Shown here one piece after another: positions 2,955 to 23,293 of a stretch of DNA of 64,000 nt (the first letter of the stretch is position 1; each line of letters starts with the position of its first letter). Both the position numbers and the translations under genes were made by a program. This DNA comes from Bacteroidales bacterium (GTDB lineage Bacteria; Bacteroidota; Bacteroidia; Bacteroidales; UBA4417). The notes below the pieces were generated by a model, which saw only the letters and a program-made list of their open reading frames with translations, was not told the origin of the DNA and did not search any database. Location of the stretch: assembly GCA_038237165.1 (NCBI GenBank), contig JBBRYZ010000001.1, positions 30,199 through 94,198 of the forward strand, written 5' to 3'.

Positions 2955-3491
2955 ATCGGAATCAGGAAACCTTTAACCGGTTTTAATCCTGCGAAAACTA
3001 TTTAATCATTTGCTACAGGTTGAGAAGACATTTGCATGTTAAAAATCACCTGTAATTTTACAAGGTCAAATATAGCCCTGTTTGTATTTACAATGGATAA
3101 GAATTTCAAATTACTTACTACGGTAGTACTATTTAGAGCTTTACCAGCATAAAATCCATTTTAATATCCTGATCACAAAAGTGGATTGTTTCCTTACTAT
3201 CCACATACAGAAAGAACAGATGGAAAATATAAACAGATAGCTTCCGCCAGGAAAATATTTAGCTGTTTATTATCAAAGGATGTTTTACGTTAATCACAAA
3301 GTTTACAGACAATCCTGATAAATAAGACTTTCAGCAACTACCACCCATACTTCCTCTATATAAAGACCCATGCAGGTACAAACGCCAGGCCGCCCGTGAT
3401 GTAACCGGAATTGCCTTTAACATGTGAAATATGTAACTTATTTCAAAAATTCTGTAATACTTTCATTATTCCCATACAGTAATTTAGCATC

Positions 3492-5719: not shown

Positions 5720-8263
5720 ATGGATAAGAAAACACCAATAAACAATCCCAATTACGATAATTTGCCAACTGATGTGGATGGGTTTGATTTGCTTGCCGAA
5801 CTTGCATTGGATATGCGCAGTTCATGGAATCATGCCGCTGATGAATTATGGCAACAACTCGATTCGGAACTATGGAAACTCACGCATAACCCCTGGATTG
5901 TCCTTCAATCAGTTTCGAGGGATCGCCTTGAAATGTTGCTGGCAGATTCAACTTTTCGTAAAAAATTGAATGAAAGAGTTCATACCCGGAAACATGCTAT
6001 TGAGAGTCCCGGATGGTTTCAGCAAAAGTACCCCAAATCGCCTCTTACCTGCATTGCTTATTTCAGCATGGAATATATGTTAAGCGAAGCCTTGCCTATT
6101 TATTCCGGTGGCCTGGGCAATGTAGCCGGTGATCAGCTTAAAGCCGCCGGCGACCTTGGTGTGCCGGTAATTGGCATCGGGTTGCTTTACCAGCAAGGCT
6201 ATTTCCGCCAGGTAATTGACAAGGATGGAAATCAATTAGAGCTTTATCCTTATAATGATCCCGGACAGTTGCCCATAACGCCGTTACGTCATAAAAACGG
6301 AGAGTGGCTACGACTCGAAATAGCATTGCCCGGATACTCAGTTTGGCTGCGTGCATGGCAGGTACAGGTAGGCAGGCTTAAGCTTTACCTGCTCGATAGT
6401 AATGATGCGGCTAACTTACCTGCCCATCGTGGTATTACAAGCGAACTATATGGTGGCGGCCATGAACTACGGCTTAAGCAGGAACTGGTTCTCGCACTGG
6501 GCGGATGGCGTTTGCTTGCTGCTCTGGGTATACGACCGGAAGTATGCCATTTAAATGAAGGACACGCAGCTTTTGCCGTCTTGGAACGGGCACGAACCTA
6601 TATGGAAGAAACCGGATTGTCCTTTAACGAAGCCCTGATGGTTACCCGTGCAGGAAATATTTTCACAACCCACACAGCCGTTGCTGCTGGTTTTGATCTT
6701 TTCTCGCCCTTCCTTATTGAACATTATCTTGGAGACTATGCTAAAAAGCTTGGCATTTCAATTTCCGATCTTTTAGCGTTAGGCCGCTTAAATCCTGATG
6801 ACCCGAATGAGAGTTTCAACATGGCCTACCTGGCAATCAGGGGCAGTGGAGCAGTAAATGGAGTAAGTCGTCTGCATGGAAAAGTAAGCCGGCACATTTT
6901 TTCGCCACTTTTTTCACGTTGGCCTGAAGATGAAGTACCGGTAGGTCATATTACAAACGGAGTACATATGTCATCATGGGATTCCGCAGAAACAGATGAT
7001 CTGTGGACGAAGGTTTGTGGAAAAGGCCGTTGGCTGGGAAAAGCCGAAACAGCAGAACAAGATATCCGCAGTGTTCCTGACGGCAAACTTTGGAAAGTCA
7101 GGACAAAAGCCAGCGCTTCTTTTGTAAAATACATTCGCGAGCGCCTCGCTCAGCAATTGTCTATTTCCGGTACATCAACCAATTTTTCAAACGATGTTGA
7201 ACAAATATTCAACCCGAATGCGTTAACACTGGGATTTGCGCGACGCTTTGCCAGTTATAAAAGGCCCAATCTGTTATTATACGACAAACAGAGGCTACAA
7301 CGCATATTAACAAATACACAATTTCCCGTTCAGCTTATTATTGCAGGCAAGGCTCATCCCGGCGATGGTGAAGGGCACGCAATGATTAAGGAATGGATAC
7401 AATTTATTCATCAGCCAGAGATCAGGCCTCATGTCATCTTTCTAAGTGACTATGATATGCTTTTAACGGAACATCTGGTGCAAGGTGTTGATGTATGGAT
7501 CAATACTCCCCGCCGACCATGGGAAGCCAGCGGAACGAGTGGCATGAAAGTGCTGGTAAACGGTGGACTCAATCTATCCGAACTGGATGGTTGGTGGTCC
7601 GAAGCCTATACGCCTGAAGTGGGCTGGGCGCTGGGAGATGGAAACGAACACGGTGACGATCCGGCCTGGGATGCCATGGAAGCGGAACAACTTTACAATT
7701 TACTCGAACAGCAGGTGGTGCCTGAATTTTACAAACGAAATGAAAAAGGAATCCCCGTTACCTGGATATCACGAATGAGGGAAAGCATGGCGCAATTGAC
7801 ACCGCGGTTCTCAGCCGACAGAGCCGTTCGCCAATATACCGAGCAACACTATCTGCCAGCAGCAAAAGCATTTATTGATCGCGCTGCCGGCAAAAGTGCA
7901 TTGGGGAAGCAAATGGTTAATTGGCAGCAAGTGTTGGAGCAGAAATGGAACACATTACATTTTGGAGAAGTGAAGGTTAACACGCAAGATGGTAAACATA
8001 TATTTGATGTCCAGGTATATACATCTGATATAGACCCAAATATGCTTAGTGTAGAACTTTACGCTGATGGAATTAACGGCAGCGAAAAGGTGGCCCAGAA
8101 AATGAAGCTGGGACTAAAGCTGGATGTATCCGTTAAAGGCTACCATTACAGTGTAATAATATTGGCAACCCGACCTGCCAAAGACTTTACGGCAAGAATA
8201 TTGCCAAATTTCCCGGGAGTATCAGTTCCACTCGAATTGGATCTTATTCTCTGGCAGCATTAG
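5720..8263 (+). CDS. glgP: Alpha-glucan (glycogen/maltodextrin) phosphorylase, GT35, long GlgP-type
   Basis: 847-aa ORF. It has motifs typical of alpha-glucan family phosphorylases: YFSMEYMLSEALPIYSGGLGNVAGD, NGVSRLHG, the EASGTSGMK PLP-lysine region and a C-terminal DUF3417-like tail. Confidence 0.9.
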   Translation: MDKKTPINNPNYDNLPTDVDGFDLLAELALDMRSSWNHAADELWQQLDSELWKLTHNPWIVLQSVSRDRLEMLLADSTFRKKLNERVHTRKHAIESPGWFQQKYPKSPLTCIAYFSMEYMLSEALPIYSGGLGNVAGDQLKAAGDLGVPVIGIGLLYQQGYFRQVIDKDGNQLELYPYNDPGQLPITPLRHKNGEWLRLEIALPGYSVWLRAWQVQVGRLKLYLLDSNDAANLPAHRGITSELYGGGHELRLKQELVLALGGWRLLAALGIRPEVCHLNEGHAAFAVLERARTYMEETGLSFNEALMVTRAGNIFTTHTAVAAGFDLFSPFLIEHYLGDYAKKLGISISDLLALGRLNPDDPNESFNMAYLAIRGSGAVNGVSRLHGKVSRHIFSPLFSRWPEDEVPVGHITNGVHMSSWDSAETDDLWTKVCGKGRWLGKAETAEQDIRSVPDGKLWKVRTKASASFVKYIRERLAQQLSISGTSTNFSNDVEQIFNPNALTLGFARRFASYKRPNLLLYDKQRLQRILTNTQFPVQLIIAGKAHPGDGEGHAMIKEWIQFIHQPEIRPHVIFLSDYDMLLTEHLVQGVDVWINTPRRPWEASGTSGMKVLVNGGLNLSELDGWWSEAYTPEVGWALGDGNEHGDDPAWDAMEAEQLYNLLEQQVVPEFYKRNEKGIPVTWISRMRESMAQLTPRFSADRAVRQYTEQHYLPAAKAFIDRAAGKSALGKQMVNWQQVLEQKWNTLHFGEVKVNTQDGKHIFDVQVYTSDIDPNMLSVELYADGINGSEKVAQKMKLGLKLDVSVKGYHYSVIILATRPAKDFTARILPNFPGVSVPLELDLILWQH

Positions 8264-8346
8264 TTTTTAAACAATGTGAAATATAAATCCAAATCAAGAT
8301 TATAAAATTGGAATGATGTGGTTTGTGTCGTATTAAGTTAATACCA

Positions 8347-8820
8347 ATGAAGACAACAAATTCAATCACTTGCCTGTTTCTGGATATCGGTGGCGTTCTG
8401 CTCTCCGACGGTTGGGATCATAATGCCCGCAAACGGGCTGCCACGAAATTCAATCTGGAAGTGTCCGAAATGGAGACCCGACATCATCTGATTTTCGATA
8501 CTTACGAGGAAGGAAAGGTCACGATGGATGAATATTTAGATATAGTGGTTTCGTACAAAGAAAGGTCTTTCACCAGGCCTGAATTTCGGAGTTTTTTGTT
8601 TGCACAAACGGAACCCCTCTCCGATATCGATATCTTTCGTTTGGCGCTTAACGCAGCTCATGTGCCCACAGAGCAGGCTGTTTATATCGATGACCTGCCA
8701 TTGTATGTGCAAGTTGCAGAAGGCTTGGGTATTCGCGGCATTCATCATACCGATTACAAGTCAACCCTCACACAGCTGACATCTTTCGGTTTACTCCATA
8801 ACGAGAGGGTCGTCCCATGA
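8347..8820 (+). CDS. HAD-family hydrolase, apparently carrying an internal in-frame deletion (possibly inactive)
   Basis: Motif I-like FLDIGGVLL and motif IV YIDD are present. Only ~30 aa lie between the cap region and motif IV, where motif II (S/T) and motif III (K) would be expected. The ATG at 8347 is preferred over the TTG at 8323. Confidence 0.6.
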   Translation: MKTTNSITCLFLDIGGVLLSDGWDHNARKRAATKFNLEVSEMETRHHLIFDTYEEGKVTMDEYLDIVVSYKERSFTRPEFRSFLFAQTEPLSDIDIFRLALNAAHVPTEQAVYIDDLPLYVQVAEGLGIRGIHHTDYKSTLTQLTSFGLLHNERVVP

Positions 8821-10007
8821 AACACATTAAGTCATATATTCTAACCATCAACGGCGGTTCGTCCAGCATCAAATTTGCGATTTACAAAGCAAGTAAGCCA
8901 CTAAAAAAAACACTTTACGGCAAAATTAACCGTATTGGTTCACCGGATACGACGCTGACTTTTAATGACCAAACTAAGAATAAACAGCAAAGCATAAATT
9001 TAGAAGCTTCGGATCATAAGGCAGCGGTAAATTTCCTGATTGACTGGCTTGAAGGGCAGCACGATTTTAATTCCATCAGCGCCATCGGACACAGAGTTGT
9101 TCATGGCATGAAACACATGGAGCCGGAGATTATCACCAAAAAATTGTTGGATGAACTGCATCGGTTTGAAATTTACGATCCGGATCATTTGCCTGCTGAG
9201 ATTGAACTGATCAAGGGATTTCTTCAGCGATATCCGAAACTAAAACAGGTTGCCTGCTTCGATACAGCGTTTCACAGCACCATGCCCCGAATTGCAAAAA
9301 TAGTGCCCATTCCGCGACATTACGAAAATAAAGGCGTTCAGCGATATGGCTTCCATGGTTTATCCTATGCTTATCTGATGGAAGAACTCGCTCGTTTGGA
9401 AGACACTAAGGTTGCGAATGGCCGTGTCATTCTTGCTCACCTTGGCAGTGGAGCAAGCATGGCAGCAGTACTTAACGGACAAAGTATCGATACAACAATG
9501 GCTTTTACCCCCGCTTCAGGTCTGATGATGAGCACCCGTTCCGGTGATGTTGATCCCGGTCTGATTTCTTTTTTAGCCCGAAGCGAGAATATGACCACCT
9601 TACAATTTGACAAAATGGTGAACCATAAATCTGGATTGTTGGGAGTATCAGAAGCCAGTTCCGACATGCACGACTTATTAAGAAAGGAAGAAGAAGATAT
9701 TAGAGCTGCTGAGGCTGTGGAATTGTTTTGTTACCAGGCAAAGAAACAGATTGGCGCTTATGCCGCTGCATTAGGTGGACTCGACATATTGATATTTGCC
9801 GGAGGTATTGGCGAAAATGCTCCGGAAATACGATCAAGGATTTGCAAAGGCTTGGAATTTCTTGGAATCGAACTTGAAGAAAAGCGAAATAGGACAAACT
9901 CCCCGATAATTTCTACAAATAAAGAAAAGGCTGTCGTTAGGGTCATTCATACTGATGAGGAATGGATGATTGCCAAAACAGTAAGTAAAATGTTAAAAAT
10001 TAATTAA
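8817..10007 (+). CDS. ackA: Acetate kinase
   Basis: 396-aa ORF with N-terminal ILTINGGSSSIKF, GHRVVHG, FDTAFH and YGFHGLSY motifs. Its start overlaps the upstream stop (ATGA). Confidence 0.92.
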   Translation: MKHIKSYILTINGGSSSIKFAIYKASKPLKKTLYGKINRIGSPDTTLTFNDQTKNKQQSINLEASDHKAAVNFLIDWLEGQHDFNSISAIGHRVVHGMKHMEPEIITKKLLDELHRFEIYDPDHLPAEIELIKGFLQRYPKLKQVACFDTAFHSTMPRIAKIVPIPRHYENKGVQRYGFHGLSYAYLMEELARLEDTKVANGRVILAHLGSGASMAAVLNGQSIDTTMAFTPASGLMMSTRSGDVDPGLISFLARSENMTTLQFDKMVNHKSGLLGVSEASSDMHDLLRKEEEDIRAAEAVELFCYQAKKQIGAYAAALGGLDILIFAGGIGENAPEIRSRICKGLEFLGIELEEKRNRTNSPIISTNKEKAVVRVIHTDEEWMIAKTVSKMLKIN

Positions 10008-10023
10008 TGAAAGGAAAACGATT

Positions 10024-10788
10024 ATGTTAATCAAAGCAAAAACATTAAAAGGCTATAAATTAGATACTGAAGATGGCGAAATAGGTAATGTTAAAGAATT
10101 CTATTTCGACGACAAGCACTGGGCAATTCGCTATCTGGTTGTCGACACAGCAAACTGGCTCACTGGCAGAAGAGTATTGATTTCACCCTATGCATTGGCT
10201 TCTGTAAATCAGGAAGCAAAAAACATCGGCATTAGTTTGAGTAAAAAACAGATCGAGGGCAGTCCATCTCTGGAAAGCGACAGACCCGTATCAAAACAAT
10301 TTGAAACGGCTTACAATGGGTATTATGGATGGCCGGAATATTGGAGCGGCGCATACATGTGGGGGCCTTATACTTTTTTAAAGCGCGACAGCAAAGAATG
10401 GAAGGAACTAAAACACCAAGAGGAATCATGGAATCCCCATTTGCGCAGCACCAATGATGTGATTGGCCACAATATTCAAGCTAGCAATGGCGAAATAGGT
10501 CATGTAGAGGACTTTATAATTGATGATGAAACCTGGGCAATTCGTTATCTGATTATAGATACTAAAAACTGGTGGGGCGGAAAGAAAGTCTTGGTTTCGC
10601 CTCAATGGATTGATCATGTTAGTTGGGAAGAAATGAAAGTGTTCGTGAATCTTTCCCGTGAGAGTATTAAGCAGTCACCGGAATATTCAGAGGAGTTTCT
10701 GCTAACCCGCGATTTTGAGACCGATTTGCATCAACATTACAATCGCAAGGGATATTGGGTCGATGAATCTGCTGCTCATAAGCTTTAA
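10024..10788 (+). CDS. Tandem PRC-barrel domain protein
   Basis: Two copies of the DGEIG.V.DF..DD..WAIRYL..DT motif typical of PRC-barrel domains. Confidence 0.7.
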   Translation: MLIKAKTLKGYKLDTEDGEIGNVKEFYFDDKHWAIRYLVVDTANWLTGRRVLISPYALASVNQEAKNIGISLSKKQIEGSPSLESDRPVSKQFETAYNGYYGWPEYWSGAYMWGPYTFLKRDSKEWKELKHQEESWNPHLRSTNDVIGHNIQASNGEIGHVEDFIIDDETWAIRYLIIDTKNWWGGKKVLVSPQWIDHVSWEEMKVFVNLSRESIKQSPEYSEEFLLTRDFETDLHQHYNRKGYWVDESAAHKL

Positions 10789-10872
10789 CTATGAAGCAAA
10801 TATGAGAAAGAGTTTTCTCACCCAATTGACTTATTAAAACCCAGCATAAAAATAACAAGAAAGGAATCAATC

Positions 10873-13257
10873 ATGAATAATATAGTATTGTCATCAGAAG
10901 AATTGAGGAAAACAAATGCATATTGGCGCGCTGCCAATTATCTGTCAGTCGGGCAGTTATACCTCTGTGAAAATCCTTTGCTTAAAGTAACCCTGAAACT
11001 TTCGCATGTAAAATCGATGTTACTCGGTCATTGGGGAACCACACCGGGACAGAACTTTATATATGTGCATCTGAATCGGGTGATTAAGAAGTATGATCTG
11101 AATATGTTTTACGTTGCCGGCCCAGGTCATGGTGGACCTGCAATTGTTGGTAATGTTTACCTCGAAGGAACCTGGAGCGAGGTTTATCCGGACATTACAC
11201 AGGATGAAGCCGGATTGAAAAAGTTGTTCAAGCAATTTTCGTTTCCGGGCGGTATTTCCAGTCATGTTGCGCCCACAACTCCGGGCTCTATCCATGAGGG
11301 CGGCGAGTTAGGATATTCGCTCAGCCATGCCTTTGGAGCAGCGTTCGATAATCCTGATTTGGTTGTTGCTTGCGTTGTTGGCGATGGCGAAGCCGAAACC
11401 GGCCCACTGGCAACTGCATGGCATTCCAACAAATTTCTTAGTCCGATTACTGACGGTGCCGTATTGCCAATTCTGCACCTGAATGGTTACAAAATAGCTA
11501 ACCCAACAATACTGGCACGTATCGAACCTGAAGAACTGGATCAATTTTTACGGGGATGTGGCTGGACACCGTATTATGTGGAAGGTGATGATCCCGAAAA
11601 AATGCATCAACTTATGGCTTCCGTAATGGAAAAAACCATCGAGGAAATCAAACGCATACAGAAGAAAGCGAGAAACAACAATGATACCACCCGCCCACGC
11701 TGGCCCATGATCGTATTGAAATCGCCCAAAGGATGGACAGGACCTAAAGTAATTGATGGATTACAAATTGAAGGTACTTTTCGTTCCCATCAGATTCCAC
11801 TGTCAGTAGATGCTGAACATCCCGAACATCTGAAACTTCTTGAAAACTGGATGAAAAGCTATAAGGCTGAAGAACTTTTTGATAATAACGGACGCCTAGT
11901 ACCCGAACTGGCTGAACTGGCACCAAAAGGAGAGCGAAGAATGGGTGCTAATCCAAATACCAACGGCGGGTTAATGTTGCATGATTTGATTATGCCGGAT
12001 TTTCGAAAATATTCAGTTGACGTACCCTCGCCAGGATCCGTTGAGGCCTCCGATACACATATGCTTGGGGAGTTCCTGAGGGATGTGGATAACCTCAATA
12101 AGGAACAGAGAAATTTCCGGATCTTTGGTCCTGATGAAACGCTGTCTAACCGGTTGAATTGTGTTTTTGAAACTACCAACCGGCAATGGGAAGCCCGTAC
12201 TCAAGAGTACGATGAGTTTCTTGCCACCGATGGCAGGGTAATGGAAATGTTGAGCGAACACCAATGCGAAGGCTGGCTCGAAGGATATCTGCTCACCGGA
12301 AGACACGGCTTGTTTAATTGCTACGAGGCTTTTATTCACATCGTCGATTCAATGTTCAACCAACATGCCAAATGGTTAAAAGTGACTGGCGAGTTGCCCT
12401 GGCGAAAAAAAATAGCATCGCTCAATTACCTGCTCGCTTCTCACGTTTGGCAGCAGGCACATAACGGATTCACCCATCAGGATCCTGGTTTCATTGGTCA
12501 TGTGGTAAACAAAAAGGCTTCTATTGTTCGCGTTTACCTGCCACCCGATGCCAATTGTTTGTTATCGGTTTGGGATCATTGCTTGAGGAGCCGTCATTAC
12601 GTCAACGTAGTGATTGCAGGCAAATATCAGGCTCCTCAATGGCTCACCATGGATGAAGCGATTGAACATTGTAAGCAGGGAATCGGCATATGGGAATGGG
12701 CTGGAACCGATAAAGGGATAGAACCGGATGTAGTAATGGCATGCTGTGGCGATGTGCCAACGCTCGAAACTCTGGCAGCTGTTTCCATTCTTCGTGAGCA
12801 TCTTCCAGATTTAAAAATCCGTGTGGTTAATGTGGTGGATTTGATGAAACTGGAACCCGATACGGAACACCCGCATGGGTTGAGCGAAAAAGATTTCGAT
12901 GCGTTATTCACGAAAGATAAACCAATTGTATTTGCTTTCCATGGCTACCCGTGGCTGATTCATCGCCTGACATACAGACGTACCAACCACGTAAACATGC
13001 ATGTAAGGGGTTATAAAGAAGAAGGTACCATTACAACTTACTTCGACATGACGGTTTTAAATGATCTGGATAGGTTTCACCTGGTGCAGGATGTAGTTGA
13101 TCGTTTGCCGCACTTGGGCGCAAGCGGTGCCAAACTGAAAAAGCTGGTTCAACAGAAACTCATCGAACACAAAAAGTATATAGACAAAAACGGTGAAGAT
13201 ATGCCGGAAATCCTGAATTGGAAATGGAGTAACCCAGAAATGAAAGTACATGTTTAA
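10873..13257 (+). CDS. xfp: Xylulose-5-P/fructose-6-P phosphoketolase
   Basis: 794-aa ORF. N-terminal [25 protein letters not shown], the [12 protein letters not shown] signature and [11 protein letters not shown] (TPP binding) are all phosphoketolase hallmarks. Confidence 0.95.
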
Positions 13258-13296
13258 TTCCGTCGTATCTTATTTAAAACAATTAAAATCAGTATA

Positions 13297-13725
13297 ATGA
13301 AAATTAATCTTAGAATTTTGATAAAGATTATAGCAATAATCATAGTTGGATTTTGGTTTGCCGGCTGTAAGGATAATTCAAAAATAGTGCCTGAGGCAGA
13401 ATATGCGACAAAAATCATCGGGCGCTGGCAAGGTACAATAGATTCTTCGAAAGAAACCATGTCTTTAAACCCTGATAGTACTTTCGTTTGTAAAATACAT
13501 CCTATGGGGTTTCTGGCCAATACTCTTTCTCAAAACCGACCAGGCTCGGTGAGTGGAAAATGGAAAATTGCAGATGCAATTATTTCCATGACAATCACTG
13601 ATTCGCAAAACGAACATTTGGGGAACAGCAATGCTTCAAGTACGATTATATCGTTCAGGGAAAACGAACTTACACTAAAATCCGAGCGTAATGAAATCTC
13701 TAAATTCAGACGATTGGCTAATTAG
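13297..13725 (+). CDS. Hypothetical lipoprotein
   Basis: 142-aa ORF with a signal peptide and FAGC lipobox. No family recognised. Confidence 0.5.
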   Translation: MKINLRILIKIIAIIIVGFWFAGCKDNSKIVPEAEYATKIIGRWQGTIDSSKETMSLNPDSTFVCKIHPMGFLANTLSQNRPGSVSGKWKIADAIISMTITDSQNEHLGNSNASSTIISFRENELTLKSERNEISKFRRLAN

Positions 13726-13864
13726 TACTTTGTAATCAGGAGTGATTAAACATAGCATTTCTTAAGTTTAAAAAAATAAAAAATGATTCAAATAAAAGTT
13801 GTAACAAATAAGAACACTGAAAAAGCAAAATCAACTCTGAATTTTAAAAGTAAAGACCCGCCTC

Positions 13865-14086
13865 ATGAATAAGAATAAACAAAGTAGCCGTAATCCTGAT
13901 CTTCAGGATCAGCCGGTTCAGCCGGAGCATTTACCCATGTGGAAACGGGTGCATCATAACTGGTTCTTCTGGATTTTTTTGATTTTAATGCTGGGTTGCA
14001 TCCTATTTTACATCATGAGTATTGATTTTGCAACTTCACCTCACAAACCATTAAAACAACCAACGGAAAACAGCAGAACGCCTTAA
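13865..14086 (+). CDS. Small single-TM membrane protein (paralog of 4654..4878)
   Basis: 73-aa ORF collinear with and ~60% identical to the 74-aa ORF at 4654. Both have the same KRVHH.W.FWIFLILMLG core and the same NxRTP C-terminus. Confidence 0.6.
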   Translation: MNKNKQSSRNPDLQDQPVQPEHLPMWKRVHHNWFFWIFLILMLGCILFYIMSIDFATSPHKPLKQPTENSRTP

Positions 14087-14113
14087 ACAATCAAAAGTAA
14101 ATAAACATACAAA

Positions 14114-15142
14114 ATGAACACAAAACAGCTTATAAACACAGCAAAGGCAATGGTTGCAGGCGATAAAGGCCTGTTGGCTATGGATGAAAGCAATCCCACC
14201 TGCAATAAAAGGTTTGCAGCCCTGGGAATACCGCAAACCGAAGACTTCCGGCGCGCGTACAGAGAGATGATTGTAACCACTCCCGGTCTCAGCGAGTGTA
14301 TTAGTGGAGCTATTCTTTATGATGAAACAATCCGCCAGCAACTAAAGGATGGAACTCCTTTTATTAAAGCCGTCACTGATGCCGGAATCATACCTGGCAT
14401 TAAAGTAGATGCAGGAGCAAAAGAAATGAAAAGTCATCCCGGTGAGAAACTAACCAAAGGTCTGGACGGATTGCGTGAACGCCTGGATGAATATGCTCAG
14501 ATGGGGCTCCGTTTTGCCAAGTGGCGGGCTGTGATAACTATAGGCGATGGCCTTCCAAGCATGGATTGTATTGAGGCAAACGCAGATGCGCTGGCAAGCT
14601 ATGCCAAACTCTGCCAGGAAGCCGGACTAGTTCCCATCGTTGAGCCGGAAGTGCTTATGGATGGAGAACATTCTCTTTCCGAATGCCGCAATGTAACAGA
14701 GGATGTTCTGCGGATTGTTTTTAATCATCTTTACACAAAAGGGGTGGTATTAGAAGGCATGATACTGAAGCCAAACATGGTGCTCCCTGGTTTGAACTGT
14801 AAAAAGCAGGAATCTGTTGAAGAGGTAGCTGATGCAACCGTAAATTGCCTGATGCGAATAGTACCCGCAGAAGTTACAGGGATTGCATTCCTATCCGGAG
14901 GCCAATCTGCGGAATTGGCTTCAGCCCGTTTAAATGCGATGAATATGAAGTTTAAGCCTCAACTGCCCTGGGCACTTTCGTTTTCTTTTGCCCGTGCTAT
15001 ACAGCAACCGGCTTTGGAAATCTGGAATGGTCAGGAAGCAAACGTATTAAAAGCACAGGAGGCACTGCTTCATCGTGCCAAATGCAATCAGTCTGCACGT
15101 CGTGGTGAATATAAAATAGAAATGGAAAGGAAAACAATATGA
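14114..15142 (+). CDS. fba: Class I fructose-bisphosphate aldolase
   Basis: 342-aa ORF. GLLAMDES, ILYDETI, GIKVD and the LEGMILKPNMV Schiff-base lysine region are typical of class I (eukaryote-like) FBA. Confidence 0.9.
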   Translation: MNTKQLINTAKAMVAGDKGLLAMDESNPTCNKRFAALGIPQTEDFRRAYREMIVTTPGLSECISGAILYDETIRQQLKDGTPFIKAVTDAGIIPGIKVDAGAKEMKSHPGEKLTKGLDGLRERLDEYAQMGLRFAKWRAVITIGDGLPSMDCIEANADALASYAKLCQEAGLVPIVEPEVLMDGEHSLSECRNVTEDVLRIVFNHLYTKGVVLEGMILKPNMVLPGLNCKKQESVEEVADATVNCLMRIVPAEVTGIAFLSGGQSAELASARLNAMNMKFKPQLPWALSFSFARAIQQPALEIWNGQEANVLKAQEALLHRAKCNQSARRGEYKIEMERKTI

Positions 15143-16167
15143 CAAACAAGGAACTAAACCCGGATCAAATAGCTTTATACCCTTTACTCTTCGAACCAAT
15201 TTATCAATATCGGCCCTGGGGTGGCCGACACTTGTCCAAATTGCTTAAAAAGCCATTGCCTGGAGAAGGGCCAATAGGCGAAGCATGGTTATTGAGTGAT
15301 CGCGATGACTTTCAGAGCAGTGTTGCGAATGGACCTTTAAAAGGGCAAACCATAAGGCAATTGCTCACGGAATCAAAGGAACATCTCCTGGGTAAATTTG
15401 TGAGAGATTTCGATCGTTTCCCGCTTTTACTGAAATTTCTTGATGCACGTGAAATGCTTTCGGTGCAGGTACATCCATCAGAATCAAATGCTGACCTGCT
15501 ACCAGCGGGAGAAACAGCCAAATCTGAAGCCTGGGTAGTGATTGAAGCGGGGAACAATAGCCGTATCTATGCCGGCTTGAAACCAGGTACTACAAAAGAA
15601 AACATAAAAATTGCACTTTCTGACGGTACAGTGGAGCAGCACCTTGCAAGCTTCATTCCCCAAAAGGGTGATGGCATCTTCATTCCGGCCGGCACGGTTC
15701 ACGCCCTGGGTGGTGATGTGGTAGTTTTCGAAATTCAACAGAACAGCGATGTAACTTTCCGCCTGTACGACTGGAACCATATTGACGCCAGGACAGGCCA
15801 TCCTAGGGAGCTTCAGATCGATAAAGCACTTGAATGCATTGATTTTAAACAAGGTCCAATTAGTCCTGTAATTCCGCAACTCGAAGATATGATGCCTGCC
15901 AGGCGGGAAATGCTTTTTAAATGCGAGCATTTTGGTTTGTGGCGGGTTGAGGCTGAATCAATGTTTATTGCCGGGGTTACAGAAACTCCCCGCATCCTGA
16001 TGTGCTTAACAGGCAAGGGTCAAGTTGAACATGAAGGGATCAGTTATCCAATCAGGAAAGGTGATGTTATGCTTTTGCCAGCCGTTGTCGGCGCCTGTTT
16101 CTGTAAACCGGAAGGTGCCATTAGTTTACTGGAGATTTCCTTGCCTGAAAACAAAAGTATCATGTAA
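15139..16167 (+). CDS. manA: Type I phosphomannose isomerase (mannose-6-phosphate isomerase)
   Basis: PWGG, GEAWLLSD, FPLLLKFLDA...LSVQVHP and GTVHALG cupin motifs. The start overlaps the fba stop. Confidence 0.85.
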   Translation: MTNKELNPDQIALYPLLFEPIYQYRPWGGRHLSKLLKKPLPGEGPIGEAWLLSDRDDFQSSVANGPLKGQTIRQLLTESKEHLLGKFVRDFDRFPLLLKFLDAREMLSVQVHPSESNADLLPAGETAKSEAWVVIEAGNNSRIYAGLKPGTTKENIKIALSDGTVEQHLASFIPQKGDGIFIPAGTVHALGGDVVVFEIQQNSDVTFRLYDWNHIDARTGHPRELQIDKALECIDFKQGPISPVIPQLEDMMPARREMLFKCEHFGLWRVEAESMFIAGVTETPRILMCLTGKGQVEHEGISYPIRKGDVMLLPAVVGACFCKPEGAISLLEISLPENKSIM

Positions 16168-16288
16168 TAGATATGATCGGTAATCACTAACCCATACCTG
16201 TTGCAGGCTGGGGAAAAGATAGTATAGAAACTAAAGTATCTGCAACAAAATTGCAGGGCTTTAACCATTAAACAGAAAATAATAACTC

Positions 16289-17071
16289 ATGAAAAGACTC
16301 ATCGTTTTTGATCTGGATGGCACACTTGCCGAAAGTAAATCATCTCTTGACAAGGAAATGGCATCATTGCTAAATAAACTTCTCTGTGTTGTAAAAGTAG
16401 CAGTTATTTCAGGTGGCGGTTGGCAACAGTTTGAAAAGCAACTACTCTCCAATCTCTCGCAAGACAATAGCTTGGAAAACCTATCCCTGCTACCTACCTG
16501 TGGGACTAAATTTTATAGGTACACAGGCAATTGGGAAAAAATATACTCGGAAGATTTCACCGATATGGAAAAAAAGAAAATCATTGATTCTCTTAAGAAA
16601 GTAATTGAAGAGGTAGGTTTCAAGATCGAAAAGGTTTGGGGAGAAGTTATTGAGGATCGTGGAAGCCAGATAACATTTTCAGCATTGGGCCAGCAAGCAC
16701 CTCTTGATGAAAAGAAAAAATGGGATCCTGATTTTACAAAACGAAAGAAGATGAAGGAGAGCCTTGATAAGCTTATTCCTGAATTTTCGGTGCGCCTGGG
16801 AGGTACCACCTCTGTTGACATCACCAAACCTGGCATTGACAAGGCTTATGGAATCAGAAAGCTCCGCGACACCCTTGGAATTGAAATAGATGAAATGATT
16901 TTTATCGGTGATGCAATATTTCCCGGAGGAAACGACTATCCTGCGAAAGAAGCAGGCGTTTTATCAATAAAAGTGAGAGATCCGAATGAATCGAAGCGGG
17001 TGATTGAAGCAATAGTGGCCTGTTTGGATGGAGTTTACAAACCAGAAGTTATAAAGGAGGTAAAACGATGA
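16289..17071 (+). CDS. HAD-IIB hydrolase, eukaryote-type phosphomannomutase-like
   Basis: FDLDGTLA motif I, a VISGG segment, and KxxG...GD...GGNDY motifs III/IV. Overall HAD-IIB (PMM/Cof-like) architecture. Confidence 0.7.
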   Translation: MKRLIVFDLDGTLAESKSSLDKEMASLLNKLLCVVKVAVISGGGWQQFEKQLLSNLSQDNSLENLSLLPTCGTKFYRYTGNWEKIYSEDFTDMEKKKIIDSLKKVIEEVGFKIEKVWGEVIEDRGSQITFSALGQQAPLDEKKKWDPDFTKRKKMKESLDKLIPEFSVRLGGTTSVDITKPGIDKAYGIRKLRDTLGIEIDEMIFIGDAIFPGGNDYPAKEAGVLSIKVRDPNESKRVIEAIVACLDGVYKPEVIKEVKR

Positions 17072-18180
17072 GTGGAATAAAATTACAGCGCCTGGGGCAA
17101 ATTATGGAGCCCGAGCCAGGTAACCCGATGGAAGTTGAAGGCGTATTAAACCCTGCTGCCGTTCGTGGTCCGGATGGTAATCTATACCTTTTTCCAAGGG
17201 ATGTGGCAAAAGGAAATTATTCGCGCATTGGCATTGCCCGTGTTAAATTTAATGAAGCAGGCGATCCTGTTGGAGTTGAAAGGCTTGGCATTGCCCTGGA
17301 GCCAAAGGAAGAATACGAAATGCGATCCGATGGCAGCGGAGGATGCGAGGATGCGCGGGTCACATTTTTTGAACCTCTGAAACGGTACATTATGACTTAT
17401 ACAGCCTTTTCGCCCAGAGGTCCACGAATAGCTTTTGCGATTTCAAAGGATTTGTTCCACTGGAAACGACTTGGGCTTGCGACTTTTGAGCCTTATAATG
17501 GTATTGATTTCGTAAATGTTGACAATAAGGACGCCGTTCTCTTTCCGGTTGCCATACCCAATCACGATGGGAAAATGGAAATGGCTATTCTGCACCGGCC
17601 ACTTTTTCAGGGAACCCGACCTGAAGAAACGGTATTCCAATCCAAATCAAGAGATGTGGATAAAGCCCATGAAAGCATCTGGATTTCCTATTGCCCAATG
17701 CCTTCAGATAGTCCTGAACCGGATCATTTAGGTATATTTAATTCACATCATCGGCTTGCTACTCCCGTGTCACCATGGGAAAGACTTAAAATAGGCGGAG
17801 GTACCCCGCCCATTCTTACCCGGTATGGCTGGCTGATCCTATACCACGGAGTAACTAAAATTGAAGGGGCTGAAAATGATAAACGCATGTTTTGTTATGC
17901 AGCCGGGATAATGATACTCTCAAAAGATCATCCCCAACACATCCACTTCCGCACAGTTGACCCTGTATTAGTACCTACCTTGCCAAATGAACGCAGTGGG
18001 ACTATCGCAAATGTTGTATTCCCTACCGGTATCGATCAAAGGTTAGATTTGGGATTACCGAATCGGTTCGACATTTATTACGGAATGGCTGATGACCGCA
18101 TTGGCGTGGCCCGGCTTGATTTGCCTGATGTGCTGCCAAAGAAAGGTGTCGCCGCCGATGCGCCTGATGCTAAAGTGTAA
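17068..18180 (+). CDS. GH130-like glycosidase/phosphorylase (DUF377-type beta-propeller)
   Basis: 370-aa ORF. N-terminal GVLNPAAV, CEDARV, YTAFS and WLILYHG motifs resemble GH130 mannoside-phosphorylase-like proteins. Translationally coupled to the upstream HAD-IIB gene. Confidence 0.6.
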   Translation: MSGIKLQRLGQIMEPEPGNPMEVEGVLNPAAVRGPDGNLYLFPRDVAKGNYSRIGIARVKFNEAGDPVGVERLGIALEPKEEYEMRSDGSGGCEDARVTFFEPLKRYIMTYTAFSPRGPRIAFAISKDLFHWKRLGLATFEPYNGIDFVNVDNKDAVLFPVAIPNHDGKMEMAILHRPLFQGTRPEETVFQSKSRDVDKAHESIWISYCPMPSDSPEPDHLGIFNSHHRLATPVSPWERLKIGGGTPPILTRYGWLILYHGVTKIEGAENDKRMFCYAAGIMILSKDHPQHIHFRTVDPVLVPTLPNERSGTIANVVFPTGIDQRLDLGLPNRFDIYYGMADDRIGVARLDLPDVLPKKGVAADAPDAKV

Positions 18181-18221
18181 TTGATCAAATTAAATATTCA
18201 CACAAGATTAAAAATAAGAAT

Positions 18222-18587
18222 ATGATAAAAGTAATTAATGATCTTCCGGATAATGTTCTGGGATTTTCTGCAATCGGAAAAATTACTGGAGCAGATTACG
18301 AATCAATTGTGATACCTGCTTTGGACGAAAAATTGAAAACACATAATAAAATCCGGATGCTATACCAATTGGGAACCGATTTTTCCGGTTTTGATATGGG
18401 AGCAATGCTGGACGACGCAAAAATGGGAATGAAGAATTTATCGGCATGGGACCGTATCGCATTGGTTTCGGATCATGAGATGATCAATTCTTTTGCAAAA
18501 TTCTTTGGTTACCTGATAACCTGTGAACTCCGGATTTATAAGAATTCTGAGCATGAACAGGCAAAAGAATGGATTTCGGAAAAATGA
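18222..18587 (+). CDS. STAS/SpoIIAA-like (DUF3478) domain protein
   Basis: 121-aa ORF with a pattern typical of SpoIIAA-like STAS/SEC14 small proteins (AIGKITGADYE..., RIALVSD). Confidence 0.55.
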   Translation: MIKVINDLPDNVLGFSAIGKITGADYESIVIPALDEKLKTHNKIRMLYQLGTDFSGFDMGAMLDDAKMGMKNLSAWDRIALVSDHEMINSFAKFFGYLITCELRIYKNSEHEQAKEWISEK

Positions 18588-18655
18588 GCTTAATTATTAC
18601 TTTGAGATCCTTGTGATACCTGGAAGGCTAAGTACATAACAATGAGCAATAAGGA

Positions 18656-21181
18656 ATGAAAATGAAAACAAATTCAAAGGTTGCGGAACCGGAACCCAAA
18701 GATAAGCCCAACGGGAAAGATGATTTAAAATCCTTACCACTGGCCGAATTGCAGAAAAAACTGGAATCGTCATCTGAAGGTCTTACTGAGGCAGAAGCAA
18801 AGAAAAGACTTACCCATTATGGTCCAAATGAGATTGAGGAAAAGAAAACCAATATGCTCCTGAAATTCCTCTCTTATTTCTGGGGTCCTATTCCCTGGAT
18901 GATCGAAGCGGCTGTAATCCTTTCGGCAGTTGCCAAGCATTGGCCCGATTTTTTCATCATCCTTGTTCTCCTCCTGGCTAACGCTATGGTTGGCTTTTTT
19001 GAAGAACGCGAAGCTGGAAATGCCATCGAGGCCCTCAAGGCACAACTGGCAGTGAAAGCACGTGTAAAACGCGATGGAAAGTGGATTACTCCCGAATCGT
19101 GTGAGCTTGTACCCGGCGATGTTATTCGCCTGAGGCTCGGCGATATTATACCTGCTGATGCCCGTCTGCTCGACGGTGATCCGGTTGAAGTGGATCAGTC
19201 GGCACTGACAGGTGAATCATTGCCTGCCGAACGCAAGTCAGGAGAAGCTGTATTTTCAGGTTCCATTATCCGACGCGGTGAAATAGACGCTTTTGTATAT
19301 GCCACAGGCACAAACACCTACTTCGGTAAAACAGCACAACTGGTTCAGGATGCAAAAACCGTCAGTCATTTTCAAAAAGCTGTTTTGAAGATCGGAAATT
19401 ACCTTATCATTCTGGCAGTGGCCTTAGTGGCGGTAATTATTACTGTCGCGATTATACGCGGAGATGCGATCCTCACAACTTTGCAATTCGCATTGGTACT
19501 CACTGTAGCCGCAATTCCTGTAGCGATGCCAACCGTGCTGTCGGTTACGATGGCTGTAGGAGCGCGCGTGCTGGCAAAGAAAAAGGCGATTGTAAGCAAG
19601 TTGGTGGCTATTGAGGAATTAGCCGGCGTGGACGTTCTGTGCGCCGACAAAACCGGGACCCTGACCCAGAACAAGTTAACGTTGGGTGATCCGTTCTGCA
19701 TAGAAAATATTTCGGCTGATCAGGTTATTCTTGATGGCGCTTTAGCTTCCCGCGCCGAAAATAACGATACCATCGACCTGGCTGTGTTGGATGGACTTAA
19801 AGATAAGGATGCCCTAAAGAAATATAAAATTCTTCATTTCCTGCCCTTCGATCCGGTGCATAAACGTACCGAAGCCACAGTTATGGGTGAGGACGGTAAA
19901 GAGTTCAAAGTAACTAAAGGCGCACCTCAGGTTATTTTGGAATTGTCGTCCAATTCCGGAAAGGTAAAAGCCGAAGTTGATAAAGCAGTTAACGAATTCG
20001 CATCACGCGGCTTTCGTTCGCTGGGAGTGGCAAAAGATGATGGAGATGGCAAATGGCAGTTTCTTGGTGTATTGCCTTTATTTGATCCACCAAGGGAAGA
20101 TGCAAAAGCAACCATTGCAACCGCACTTGCGATGGGAGTAAAAATTAAAATGGTTACGGGTGATGCACTCGCCATCGCGAAAGAAACTGCCAAAAAGCTT
20201 GACATGGGTTCAAATATACTCGATGCCGCCAGCCTCGGAGATTCAAAGAAGACGGAAACAGATGCTGTTGCCGATTCTATCGAAAAAGCCGATGGCTTCG
20301 CACAGGTTTTCCCTGAACACAAATTCCACATTGTGGATGTCTTGCAAAAACATGGCCACATCGTTGGAATGACTGGCGACGGAGTGAACGATGCCCCTGC
20401 CCTGAAAAAAGCTGACTGCGGTATCGCCGTTTCTGACGCTACAGATGCAGCCCGTGCCGCAGCATCCATCGTGCTGATGACTTCCGGTCTTTCGGTGATT
20501 ATTGACGCCATTAAGGAAAGTCGTCGTATTTTCCAAAGAATGAACAGCTATGCTATATACCGGATTGCAGAAACTTTGCGCGTGTTATTGTTTATGACTT
20601 TATCAATTCTCGTGTTTAATTTTTATCCGGTTACCGCTGTCATGATCGTGATGTTGGCATTACTGAATGATGGCGCCATACTGTCTATTGCGTATGATAA
20701 TGTTCATTATAAAAACCAGCCTGAAGCATGGAATATGCGAATGGTGCTGGGAATCTCGACAGTGTTGGGCGTAATTGGTGTAGTGGCCGCGTTTGGCTTG
20801 TTTTTTCTCGGCGAACGTGTCTTTCATATCGACCGCGCACATATACAGACACTGATGTATTTGAAACTTTCTGTTGCCGGCCATCTTACAATATTTCTTA
20901 CCCGCACACGCGGTCCTTTCTGGTCCATCAAACCAGCCAGGATTTTATGGATAGCCGTTCTCGGAACGCAAATCGTTGCAACGTTAATAGCAGTTTATGG
21001 TTTTTTTATGACGCCATTGGGCTGGGGTTGGGCAGGCTTCGTTTGGGGATATGCTTTAATTTGGTTTCTTTTGAACGACCGTATAAAATTACTGGCTTAT
21101 GAGCTTTTTGATCCTGTTAAAAAAAATTCTAACCCCGGAAATTTACCTGAGTCCAAATCTGAAGACAAAACACAGTCTTAA
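18656..21181 (+). CDS. P3-type (plasma-membrane-type) H+-translocating P-type ATPase
   Basis: 841-aa ORF with TGES, CADKTGTLTQN (phosphorylation site), MVTGD and GDGVNDAPALKKAD. Overall P3A organisation. It ends at a TAA (21179-21181) that lies inside a repeat unit (see findings). Confidence 0.88.
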   Translation: MKMKTNSKVAEPEPKDKPNGKDDLKSLPLAELQKKLESSSEGLTEAEAKKRLTHYGPNEIEEKKTNMLLKFLSYFWGPIPWMIEAAVILSAVAKHWPDFFIILVLLLANAMVGFFEEREAGNAIEALKAQLAVKARVKRDGKWITPESCELVPGDVIRLRLGDIIPADARLLDGDPVEVDQSALTGESLPAERKSGEAVFSGSIIRRGEIDAFVYATGTNTYFGKTAQLVQDAKTVSHFQKAVLKIGNYLIILAVALVAVIITVAIIRGDAILTTLQFALVLTVAAIPVAMPTVLSVTMAVGARVLAKKKAIVSKLVAIEELAGVDVLCADKTGTLTQNKLTLGDPFCIENISADQVILDGALASRAENNDTIDLAVLDGLKDKDALKKYKILHFLPFDPVHKRTEATVMGEDGKEFKVTKGAPQVILELSSNSGKVKAEVDKAVNEFASRGFRSLGVAKDDGDGKWQFLGVLPLFDPPREDAKATIATALAMGVKIKMVTGDALAIAKETAKKLDMGSNILDAASLGDSKKTETDAVADSIEKADGFAQVFPEHKFHIVDVLQKHGHIVGMTGDGVNDAPALKKADCGIAVSDATDAARAAASIVLMTSGLSVIIDAIKESRRIFQRMNSYAIYRIAETLRVLLFMTLSILVFNFYPVTAVMIVMLALLNDGAILSIAYDNVHYKNQPEAWNMRMVLGISTVLGVIGVVAAFGLFFLGERVFHIDRAHIQTLMYLKLSVAGHLTIFLTRTRGPFWSIKPARILWIAVLGTQIVATLIAVYGFFMTPLGWGWAGFVWGYALIWFLLNDRIKLLAYELFDPVKKNSNPGNLPESKSEDKTQS

Positions 21182-21892
21182 ACTGTAGATAAAGCAGATA
21201 TTAAGCCCGAAGCAAAATCTGAGACACCGCCTGATTCCGATAGCAAACCGGAAGATAAAACAGACAAGCCTGAGGGTAAAAAGGATGCTGAAACTAATGA
21301 TAAAAGAGAAACGAAACCTGAAACGAAATCTGAGACACCAGCTGATTCCGATAGCAAACCGGAATATAAAACAGACAAGCCTGAGGATAATAAGGATGCT
21401 GAAACTAATGATAAAAGAGAAACGAAACCTGAAACGAAATCTGAGACACCAGCTGATTCCGATAGCAAACCGGAAGATAAAACAGACAAGTCAGAGGATA
21501 AAAAGGATACTGAAACTAAAGATAAATCTGAAACGAAACCTGAAACGAAATCTGAGACACCATCTGATTTCGATATTAAACCTGGAGATAAAGCATACAA
21601 GTCTGAAGACAAAACAAAGAATAAAACTGAAGATAAAGCAGATACTAAGCCTGAAAGCAAACCCGAACCTTATACCAAAGTCAAAACTACAACAGATTTA
21701 ACCCCTGGTATGGTTAAGCGTGTCCATGAACTTTATGAGGAACTGGGGCGTAAGGATGTTCAGGCGGTTGAAGAATTGGAAAATGAGGAACGTGGTAATA
21801 GTGAAGATGAAGCCAAAACCGGACTTAAGCCTGATGCCAATGAAAAGCATGAAAAGGAAAAGGATATTCCGAAAGATAAGACTGATAAGTAA
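21182..21892 (+). other. Open in-frame continuation of the ATPase reading frame (237 codons, K/E/D/T/P-rich, then a helical acidic tail)
   Basis: I translated every codon from 21182 in the ATPase frame. There is no stop until the TAA at 21890-21892, and no ATG/GTG/TTG until the ATG at 21710. This is either a severed C-terminal tail, a read-through extension, or a small ORF 21710..21892. Confidence 0.6.
21206..21615 (+). repeat. 111-bp (37-codon) tandem repeat, ~3.7 copies
   Basis: Unit starts (ggatgctgaaactaat...) at 21283 and 21394, a diverged one at 21505, and a partial copy at 21206-21282. Copies 2 and 3 are nearly identical. Confidence 0.9.
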
Positions 21893-21947
21893 ATCCAATC
21901 AATTCATTGACAATTAATCATTCACACCAATAATATAACAACTGGTT

Positions 21948-22796
21948 ATGAACTACACGAAAAAATTCCTTATAAAACCAGAAAGCCATGTTCAGCTCAA
22001 GGATTTTGATCCGGGCTATGATGGCAAACACGAAAAGAAAAAATCAGCCATTCAGAAGTTGGAGAAACTTCAAAATCAGATGGTTGAACTGCAATACAAG
22101 CTTTTTGTTGAACATAAACAGTCATTGTTAATAATACTTCAGGCTCTTAATGCCGGTGGCAAGGATGGTGTCGTGCGGCATGTTATAAGCTCAATGAACC
22201 CGCAAGGTTGCCGCGTAATTAGCTTTAAGCAACCAATACCTGAGGAACTCGATCATGATTTTTTGTGGCGGATTGAAAGCCAGGTTCCAAAGCCCGGGGA
22301 AGTCGTTATTTTTAACCGGTCACAATACGAAGATGTACTTATTGCCCGTGTTCACAACCTTGTTCCTAAAGCAGTTTGGTCAAAGCGCTACGAAATGATC
22401 AATGAATTCGAGCAAAAGCTTGTGGCTAATGGCACCCATATTTTAAAATTCTTCCTTCACATCAGCAAGGAGGAACAGCTCGATCGCTTTAAAAAGCGAC
22501 TTGATGATCCGTCAAAACAGTGGAAAATAAGTGAAGCAGACTATTCGGAAAGGAAATATTGGGCTGAATATGAATCGGCATACGAGGATGTACTTAATAA
22601 ATGCAGCGCCAATGATTCTCCCTGGTTTATCATTCCCTCCGATCATAAATGGTTCCGCGACCTTGCAATAGCGCAAATCATTGTAAAAACAATGGAAAAA
22701 TTAAACATTGAGCTACCGGAACCGACCGTAAATATCGCCGACATCCGGAAAAAATATCATGAAACTGCCGTAAAGAATAAAAAAGCAAAAAAATAA
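21948..22796 (+). CDS. ppk2: Polyphosphate kinase 2 (PPK2) family protein
   Basis: 282-aa ORF with a Walker-A-like ALNAGGKDG, FNRSQYEDV and the lid region typical of single-domain PPK2. Confidence 0.85.
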   Translation: MNYTKKFLIKPESHVQLKDFDPGYDGKHEKKKSAIQKLEKLQNQMVELQYKLFVEHKQSLLIILQALNAGGKDGVVRHVISSMNPQGCRVISFKQPIPEELDHDFLWRIESQVPKPGEVVIFNRSQYEDVLIARVHNLVPKAVWSKRYEMINEFEQKLVANGTHILKFFLHISKEEQLDRFKKRLDDPSKQWKISEADYSERKYWAEYESAYEDVLNKCSANDSPWFIIPSDHKWFRDLAIAQIIVKTMEKLNIELPEPTVNIADIRKKYHETAVKNKKAKK

Positions 22797-22819: not shown

Positions 22820-23293
22820 CTATTTATATCCCTTATTACTTTCAAGGATTGATTTAGCTTTACTTATATCCTCTTGATTTCCATGAACAATGACCTTAAA
22901 ACCTTTTTCCTCAATATGTTCACGGTATTTTAACACTGTCCTTGTTTTGATTAGGAAAATAGCAATGAGACTAATAATACCTCCACCTGCAATGCCAAAA
23001 GAAAACCCGGCTATTGCGCCTATCCCGGCACCTACTCCGAAAAGAAATCCCAGTCCGGGAATTTCAAATAGTTTCGCCCCGGTGAGCATTCCCATAATTG
23101 GTCCAAGGATAGCTCCAATAATTGCCGGAACATTCTTTATCCAACTATTACTTTTTGAACGCATCAAGTCATCAATGATAGCCGCTTTCCCAATAAGGGA
23201 AAGCTGTTGAACCGGGAAGCCAGCGCGTTTTAGCGCTTCAACTACTTCGATTGCTTTCTCGTGGGTATCGTATACCCCTATCGTTGCATTCAT
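22820..23293 (-). CDS. General-stress-type protein (GSP17M/YflT-like domain) with glycine-zipper membrane segment
   Basis: The N-terminal GVYDTHEKAIEVVEALKRAGF...LSLIGK resembles the YflT/GSP17M-like domain. The central G-rich hydrophobic region (GAILGPIMGMLTGA...GVGAGIGAIAG) looks like a glycine zipper. Confidence 0.55.
   Translation of the reverse strand: MNATIGVYDTHEKAIEVVEALKRAGFPVQQLSLIGKAAIIDDLMRSKSNSWIKNVPAIIGAILGPIMGMLTGAKLFEIPGLGFLFGVGAGIGAIAGFSFGIAGGGIISLIAIFLIKTRTVLKYREHIEEKGFKVIVHGNQEDISKAKSILESNKGYK

Follow-up and report, generated by a model that had tools for sequence, protein, structure and literature searches.

Apparent recent loss of a family-typical C-terminal tail in a bacterial P3A proton pump through a premature stop codon

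Where does the H+-ATPase gene of this locus end, and what is the long open frame that follows its stop codon? The DNA that was analysed, called the window here, is a stretch of 64,000 nucleotides (nt) from a Bacteroidales bacterium (GTDB lineage UBA4417; assembly GCA_038237165.1, contig JBBRYZ010000001.1, positions 30,199 to 94,198), and it encodes a plasma-membrane-type H+-ATPase of the P3A class whose TAA stop codon at 21179-21181 lies within a coding repeat. A preliminary description of the locus proposed that this codon is either a recent AAA-to-TAA change or a leaky or read-through stop, and that it cuts off a disordered tail. The explanation favoured here, with a probability of roughly 0.7, is a genuine and recent nonsense truncation of a tail typical of the pump's family. 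The case concerns a C-terminal extension on a P3A pump, which as such is a known kind of feature, encountered here as a freshly truncated allele.

The pump is encoded on the forward strand by the open reading frame (ORF) 18656..21181, which yields 841 amino acids (aa) and closes with TAA directly after ...KSEDKTQS, as had been described. It scores 1072.1 bits against the NCBIfam equivalog TIGR01647 (cut-off 615.5), covering model positions 1-755 of 755, and carries the Pfam domains Cation_ATPase_N, E1-E2_ATPase and Hydrolase. Read by eye, the translation contains 'CADKTGTLT' with its DKTGT motif, 'LLNDGAILS' and 'AETLRVLLF'; the M6 Asp (in 'LNDG') and the M5 Arg, residues used for proton transport, would be the counterparts of AHA2 Asp684 and Arg655. 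The protein is a P3A plasma-membrane-type proton-efflux ATPase. Its end lies 19 residues past the conserved '...LLAYELFDPVK', which itself comes after the last membrane helix. Because the catalytic pump is complete and half of the close homologs are naturally tail-less (see below), the gene as a whole is most likely functional. A look-up of the 841-aa product returned no record, and the protein collection holds only the window's own call of 839 aa (P0121).

The stop occupies the ninth codon of unit 1 in an in-frame tandem array (21155..21709, + strand) that repeats a spacer rich in K, E, D, T, P and S with a period of 111 nt, or 37 codons. Four complete units are followed by a fifth that has diverged in its second half, about 4.3-5 units overall; Tandem Repeats Finder reported period 111 with 3.6-4.3 copies and 86-91% matches (best score 639, at 91%), and a separate repeat search recovered one family with spacings of 111, 111 and 111. 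The preliminary description had aligned 21155-21217 with 21599-21661, and this ungapped match, identical at 52 of 63 positions with the TAA opposite a Lys codon (AAA), was reproduced; the full array had been overlooked, the two segments being only its first and last units. Comparison of the units by codon position, synonymous against non-synonymous, gave no third-position excess and is uninformative for such a low-complexity spacer. The array also opens an antisense ORF (21178-21660, - strand, 160 aa) and an ORF in the +2 frame (21285-21701, 138 aa), both of which were judged to be low-complexity by-products of the repeats.

Past the stop, the pump frame remains open for 236 sense codons (21182..21889, + strand) until a second TAA at 21890-21892, and the first in-frame ATG, GTG or TTG is the ATG at 21710, in agreement with what had been noted. 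None of 5000 dinucleotide shuffles of 21182-21889 was stop-free in frame (mean 18 stops), and only 13 of 5000 were when the non-repeat part, 21662-21889, was shuffled. The frame is open far beyond chance, is not a by-product of composition and is coding-derived. The six residues K, E, D, T, P and S account for 78% of the severed stretch, which bears out its earlier description as a K/E/D/T/P-rich tail. Toward its end lies a terminal module, 'DLTPGMVKRVHELYEELGRKDVQAVEELENEER' (21695..21793, + strand), which is predicted to be helical and was recognised by module alignment. It is an intact and complete copy with all family-conserved residues kept, is placed by tblastn in frame 0 relative to the pump, and matches a module that about 50 related loci conserve at the C-terminus. 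The spacer and the terminal 'VKRVHELYEELGR' module both sit downstream of the pump and in its frame, and the TAA at 21179-21181 alone separates pump and tail.

The former end of the gene can be read from the closest syntenic relative, a Bacteroidales metagenome-assembled genome (L039) with 79-82% DNA identity in which the polyphosphate kinase gene PPK2 again lies downstream. Its locus is colinear with the window apart from two differences, namely a single spacer unit and an in-frame deletion of ~120 nt that took out the terminal module. L039 has AAG (Lys) at the window's TAA, and its pump ORF crosses the stop region and ends at a TAA aligned with window 21890-21892 ('AAGTAAATCC'). As a rule, orthologous loci do not end where the window's pump does, contrary to what would have refuted the preliminary description. 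As unit 5 of the window's array has AAA and L039 has AAG at the aligned position, the stop can be traced to a Lys codon, in line with the AAA-to-TAA change that had been proposed. The position of PPK2 tells the same story: its start lies 55 nt past the 21890-21892 stop in the window and 54 nt past the aligned stop in L039, and PPK2 follows the tail stop in 44 of 80 related loci, with a modal gap of 45 nt. This spacing fits the downstream stop and not the premature one, and thus supports 21892 as the ancestral end. The alignments therefore place the ancestral pump-gene stop at 21890..21892 (+ strand) and show that the stop at 21179-21181 is premature and arose from a Lys codon.

Do related pumps carry this tail as part of the protein? 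A protein search whose query joined the final 53 residues of the pump to the read-through tail gave 381 significant proteins, nearly all of them C-terminal pieces annotated 'H+-transporting ATPase', many with the Pfam domains Cation_ATPase_C (PF00689) and PF11154 (DUF2934). The entries listed by that search were fragments of at most 506 aa. Their tails share a common plan, in which a core ending in '...LLAYRIFDPVK' leads into a charged, (PEAKAE)n-like spacer, one or more modules, a further spacer and a terminal module. The upstream module follows the pattern 'TSDLTPQIA.RAYELYE..G...G..VQDWEKAEREIRK', occurs once or more per tail, and in homologous tails passes the DUF2934 model at 50-88 bits (E-values of 1e-13 for P0001, 2.5e-13 for L065 and 2.2e-25 for P0011). 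The terminal module, 'DLTP[QG][LIM]VKRVHELYEELGR.DV.AVE.LEKAER', is followed by a stop within a few residues. When window positions 21665-21889 were compared with PF11154 (gathering threshold 22 bits), no match appeared even at E<=10. The window's module does have the DUF2934-like pattern '..R..ELYEE.GR......E..E', and it is always the last in these tails, but it falls below the Pfam model and lacks the conserved Trp pair, and its homolog in P0008 is predicted to form one long helix rather than a hairpin.

Two sets of pumps indicate how common such tails are. A genomic census of 80 loci, drawn from a scan of species-representative genomes, spans Bacteroidota, Verrucomicrobiota, Acidobacteriota, several proteobacterial classes, Ignavibacteria, Chlamydiota and others; several of its record titles indicate peat, bog or palsa samples. 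An intact tail of at least 100 aa with one or more modules is part of the pump ORF at 55 of the 80 loci and an intact shorter tail with a module at 6, while the module is severed by a stop or frameshift at 6; a long tail without a recognised module (6 loci), a short or missing tail (5 loci) and a position off the contig end (2 loci) make up the rest. The second set is made up of the full-length homologs nearest to the pump, 119 in number (83-89% core identity, 819-1247 aa), among which 57 have no tail, 4 a spacer only, 28 DUF2934 only, 22 DUF2934 plus the terminal module and 8 the terminal module only. The pump ORF therefore runs into a disordered, K/E/D/P-rich and module-bearing spacer at 61 of 80 loci and in 58 of 119 close homologs. 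Many pumps of 930-1247 aa that continue without a break into homologous tails were recovered, as the preliminary description had suggested looking for, and the hypothetical read-through product of the window, at 1078 aa, lies inside the length range of the homologs. The downstream frame is thus identified, as had been claimed, as the cut-off C-terminal tail of the ATPase, its homologs carrying it within the pump ORF, and the sequence similarity shows the remnant to be related to real pump tails. The further view that a long repeat-bearing tail would be unusual for a bacterial P3 pump did not hold, since a long tail of this kind is the majority state of this family.

The closest counterparts to the window's tail are found in P0171, P0180 and P0216-P0218, all of which have a repeated D/E/K/T-rich spacer and end in a module that is almost the same as the window's terminal one. 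Among them, P0216, P0217 and P0218 differ mainly in spacer repeat number, with tails of 205, 189 and 125 aa, and the near-identical pumps P0131 and P0139, as well as P0210 and P0213, again differ chiefly in this number. Expansion and contraction of tandem repeats is accordingly the normal route by which these tails change length. The top non-self match to the pump, P0122 (1051 aa, on a 4242-bp contig), was considered as an intact ortholog and set aside as a chimeric internal duplication: its spacer leads into the P-domain and the M5-M8 region of the same pump for a second time, by its look an assembly chimera or a duplication.

Loss of the tail is not confined to the window. In L084 (88% core identity), two in-frame stops within the DUF2934 module ('IANRA*EL*GQEGHQKGHAEQDWLKAEKEI', at about 2990-3120) replace two conserved Tyr codons while the remaining module is still readable, which makes this locus a clear case in which a tail was lost in a like manner, only earlier. 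L027 and L074 have a TAG in common, followed by a module with residues since lost, the tail of L086 has a frameshift and that of L085 a truncation, and in L039 the terminal module was removed in frame. Tail loss recurs among the relatives by way of other in-frame stops, frameshifts and deletions. The window also resembles nonsense-truncated genes and partial pseudogenes in general, in that a single premature stop stands in an otherwise intact frame, orthologs are uninterrupted, the ancestral stop is recognisable and relatives carry parallel, independent lesions. It differs from them in losing only a dispensable C-terminal appendage.

These observations can be combined as follows. The window's pump belongs to a horizontally spread family of bacterial P3A pumps that commonly carry a long cytoplasmic C-terminal extension, in which a disordered, charged spacer, its length set by tandem repeats, tethers one to three helical modules, either DUF2934 helix-turn-helix units or the terminal 'VKRVHELYEELGR' helix or both. 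A single A-to-T change would have turned a Lys codon (AAA) of the first spacer repeat into TAA, so that translation now stops 19 residues past '...FDPVK' and gives a tail-less pump of 841 aa. The remaining 236 codons, with the terminal helix intact, would persist on the transcript shared by pump and PPK2 but no longer be translated. The event is inferred to be recent because the remnant shows no second lesion. Stop codons would result from 4.8% of all possible substitutions in the remnant, and at 2% divergence, about 14 substitutions placed at random, a second one is as likely as not.

Several points weigh against this reading. The remnant has neither a second stop nor an indel over 708 nt, and its undecayed state, although it fits a very recent event, fits also an error in the assembly or continued use of the frame; from the pristine remnant we take the TAA to be recent, and the other two possibilities to be less likely. 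Units 1 and 5 differ by 5 substitutions within 15 nt at the stop, and the region is thus altered beyond what a single hit predicts. Variants of the locus at 21179 were sought in two metagenome scans, one with an exact 25-mer carrying N at the first base of the stop and one with a codon-degenerate pattern for 'NSNPGNLPESKSEDKT', and neither gave a match; the sole other copy in the protein collection comes from the window's own contig (P0121). Finally, a full-length AlphaFold2 model of the tailed pump P0218, built on 91 aligned sequences that are too uniform (80-88% identity), was unusable, with a mean predicted confidence (pLDDT) of 40, and docking of the tail could not be read from it.

The first of these points leads to the possibility that the TAA is a sequencing, consensus or repeat-assembly error, the real base being A and the gene encoding an uninterrupted pump of ~1078 aa with a repeat-expanded tail. 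The flawless downstream frame and terminal module would be expected in that case, the lesion sits within a 111-nt tandem array that is hard for short-read assembly, and other assemblies of the family contain artefacts, such as the chimeric duplication of P0122 and perhaps the frameshifts of L081 and L052. The artefacts suspected elsewhere, however, are indels and duplications and in no case a clean substitution, unit 1 can be told apart from the rest of the array by several differences close to one another, and relatives carry real nonsense lesions in their tails (L084, and the one common to L027 and L074). An error is for these reasons considered improbable.

Alternatively, the gene could have been split functionally, into a pump without its tail and a 60-aa protein that is translated on its own and whose helix acts in trans. 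The ATG at 21710 indeed opens an ORF (21710..21892, + strand) that gene callers predict (P0241), and a genuine-looking stand-alone protein of 110 aa with DUF2934 and the terminal module but no pump before it, P0245, occurs in two independent samples, which suggests that the module pair may also exist as a free protein. P0245 is located at 47-379 in L082 and L083 and adjoins a ThiS-like ORF. Stand-alone small proteins are also the usual context recorded for DUF2934 in Pfam. Nevertheless, the Met at 21710 aligns to L, I or M, and 'TPGMVKRVHELYEE' or 'TPGMIKRVHELYEE' is internal to the intact tails of seven related loci (L001-L005, L018 and L022), so that it is not a conserved start, and the conserved independent small ORF that the preliminary description had considered is not supported. 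It is preceded by 528 nt of open frame that is start-less and homologous to spacers, and the sole promoter-like site nearby, at 21907-21934, lies downstream of it. A phmmer search with the 60-aa ORF against 1.8 billion representatives returned 31 short proteins, P0245 among them. Short tail fragments in the databases were considered as stand-alone genes and rejected, as those inspected turned out to be contig-end pieces or frameshift-broken genes in other assemblies, and most short tail-only proteins are of these two kinds. P0011, for example, lies behind a frameshift in the spacer on its contig L081, and P0011 and the phmmer match P0257 both begin at the module or slightly ahead of it, which is what calls made behind a break should show. 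Nothing in the window supports a module acting in trans, and such a split is regarded as distinctly improbable.

It is also conceivable that the tail is still made, through programmed read-through of the stop or through a reversible switch in which units 1 and 5 recombine in frame. A perfectly open, homologous frame follows the stop, and an exact 15-nt repeat (TCTGAAGACAAAACA) precedes the stop closely in unit 1 and recurs at the equivalent place in unit 5, so that a 444-nt in-frame deletion between the two copies would remove the stop and restore a tail like that of L039; spacer copy number does vary among the near-identical P0216, P0217 and P0218. Against this, TAA is the commonest terminator of the window, and as it ends 19 of 31 long ORFs a reassignment of the code is excluded. 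UAA is generally the least leaky stop in bacteria. The RNA around the stop folds no better than shuffled sequences (z = -1.5), no Rfam match was found within 20900-22100, the stop is absent from L039 and from all 80 loci, and other interrupted tails are visibly decaying. The leaky or read-through stop of the preliminary description is hence not borne out; the stop itself is an ordinary mutation, and both read-through and a switch are thought highly improbable.

If the truncation is genuine, what was lost with the tail? An AlphaFold2 model of the tail of P0008, based on an alignment of 88 sequences, predicts the last membrane helix followed by spacers with pLDDT below 50 (disordered), a helix-turn-helix for DUF2934 (residues 114-130 and 134-153, pLDDT about 70-76) and, for the terminal module, one long uninterrupted helix (193-230, pLDDT 71-84). 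The helical end that had been proposed for the window's tail is supported indirectly, in that the module homologous to it is predicted to be a helix. A PDB sequence search with a four-module protein found no chain at E<=1, a search in which entries for Pma1 and AHA2 would be included.

Similar extensions are known from eukaryotic pumps. Like plant AHA2 and fungal Pma1, the bacterial pump belongs to the subfamily described by TIGR01647, its extension starts directly past the last membrane helix on the cytoplasmic side, and, going by the P0008 prediction, helical segments are held on a flexible tether. No sequence similarity of the bacterial tail to the regulatory (R) domains was found, however, nor any Pfam or NCBIfam match in the window's tail; the bacterial tail is far longer and mostly of low complexity, contains modules of the DUF2934 type and expands by tandem repeats. 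Autoinhibition, established for AHA2 and Pma1, can be suggested for the bacterial tail by analogy. As the position of the tail matches that of the R domains in plant and fungal P3A pumps, the most economical hypothesis would be a tethered regulatory element that is probably autoinhibitory. By the same comparison, tail-less alleles such as the window's would be unregulated or constitutively active pumps. Truncated, tail-less plant P3A pumps are viable and hyperactive (PMC9708826, PMC10654040), and the R domains of plants and fungi are mutually unrelated and thought to be independent in origin (PMC10654040).

The genes around the pump give some indication of the context in which it works. Directly upstream lies a SpoIIAA-like/STAS protein (18222..18587, + strand; Pfam PF11964, 4.6e-25), which is found in the same position in 16 related loci and also in L084-L086, and downstream lies the PPK2-family polyphosphate kinase (21948..22796, + strand; Pfam PPK2 1.5e-72, TIGR03709 372 bits). 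A block of genes that are all read in one direction, at 5720-22796 (+ strand), has the pump as its last member but one, and its order is carbohydrate/glycogen phosphorylase, acetate kinase, phosphoketolase (XFP), class-I fructose-bisphosphate aldolase, PMI-like, PMM/HAD, GH130, STAS, H+-ATPase and PPK2. This block looks like a module that might turn stored glycogen and polyphosphate into ATP for proton extrusion; no paper on this gene cassette was found in a literature search. In a comparison with window 16289-22796, 15 loci have HAD and GH130 genes ahead of the pump, with 70-84% amino-acid identity, and the pump cores are 83-89% identical across Bacteroidota, Verrucomicrobiota, Acidobacteriota and Proteobacteria. 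Such identity across phyla, together with the co-travelling parts of the block, implies recent horizontal transfer. The promoter-like site at 21907-21934, between the ancestral stop and PPK2, is a sigma-70-like match (TTGACA, 16 nt, AATAAT; 11/12) that agrees with the consensus only and is of doubtful relevance in a likely Bacteroidota host. The gene convergent to PPK2 (22820-23293, - strand) encodes a protein of 157 aa in which a YflT-like general-stress domain is combined with a membrane segment rich in glycine, and it is conserved beside the pump in only one other locus (L014).

Annotation should accordingly give the pump a length of 841 aa and treat the 60-aa 'gene' that starts at 21710 as, most likely, a leftover of the tail; the 712-nt 'intergenic' stretch is former coding sequence. 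With respect to the family, a 2023 review describes prokaryotic P3A ATPases as lacking extended termini and as occurring mainly in methanogenic archaea (PMC10654040). The tails contradict its statement on the termini, as in a large bacterial P3A family that spans several phyla most pumps carry C-terminal extensions of 100-400 aa with conserved helical modules. The architecture is catalogued, in that databases annotate DUF2934 on pumps, and apparently undiscussed in the literature searched: no paper on DUF2934-tailed bacterial P3A pumps was found, and 'DUF2934', a domain without known function, appeared there only in incidental mentions.

Perhaps bacteria evolved a P3A regulatory tail of their own, independently of plants and fungi, in the form of DUF2934-type helices held on a long, disordered tether driven by repeats, which spreads from phylum to phylum along with a cassette for making ATP from glycogen and polyphosphate and whose repeated loss through nonsense changes, frameshifts and deletions is adaptive and possibly reversible, a speculative and rather unlikely scenario as a whole. 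If it were true, loss of the tail would mean de-repressed proton extrusion in acidic, energy-poor habitats, and as the stop lies within a repeat, the loss may be reversible through in-frame recombination between units. Tailed, naturally tail-less and freshly truncated alleles at 83-89% core identity would in any case form a comparative series for the question of autoinhibition, and DUF2934, so far a domain of no known function, would gain a concrete and testable context in these pumps.

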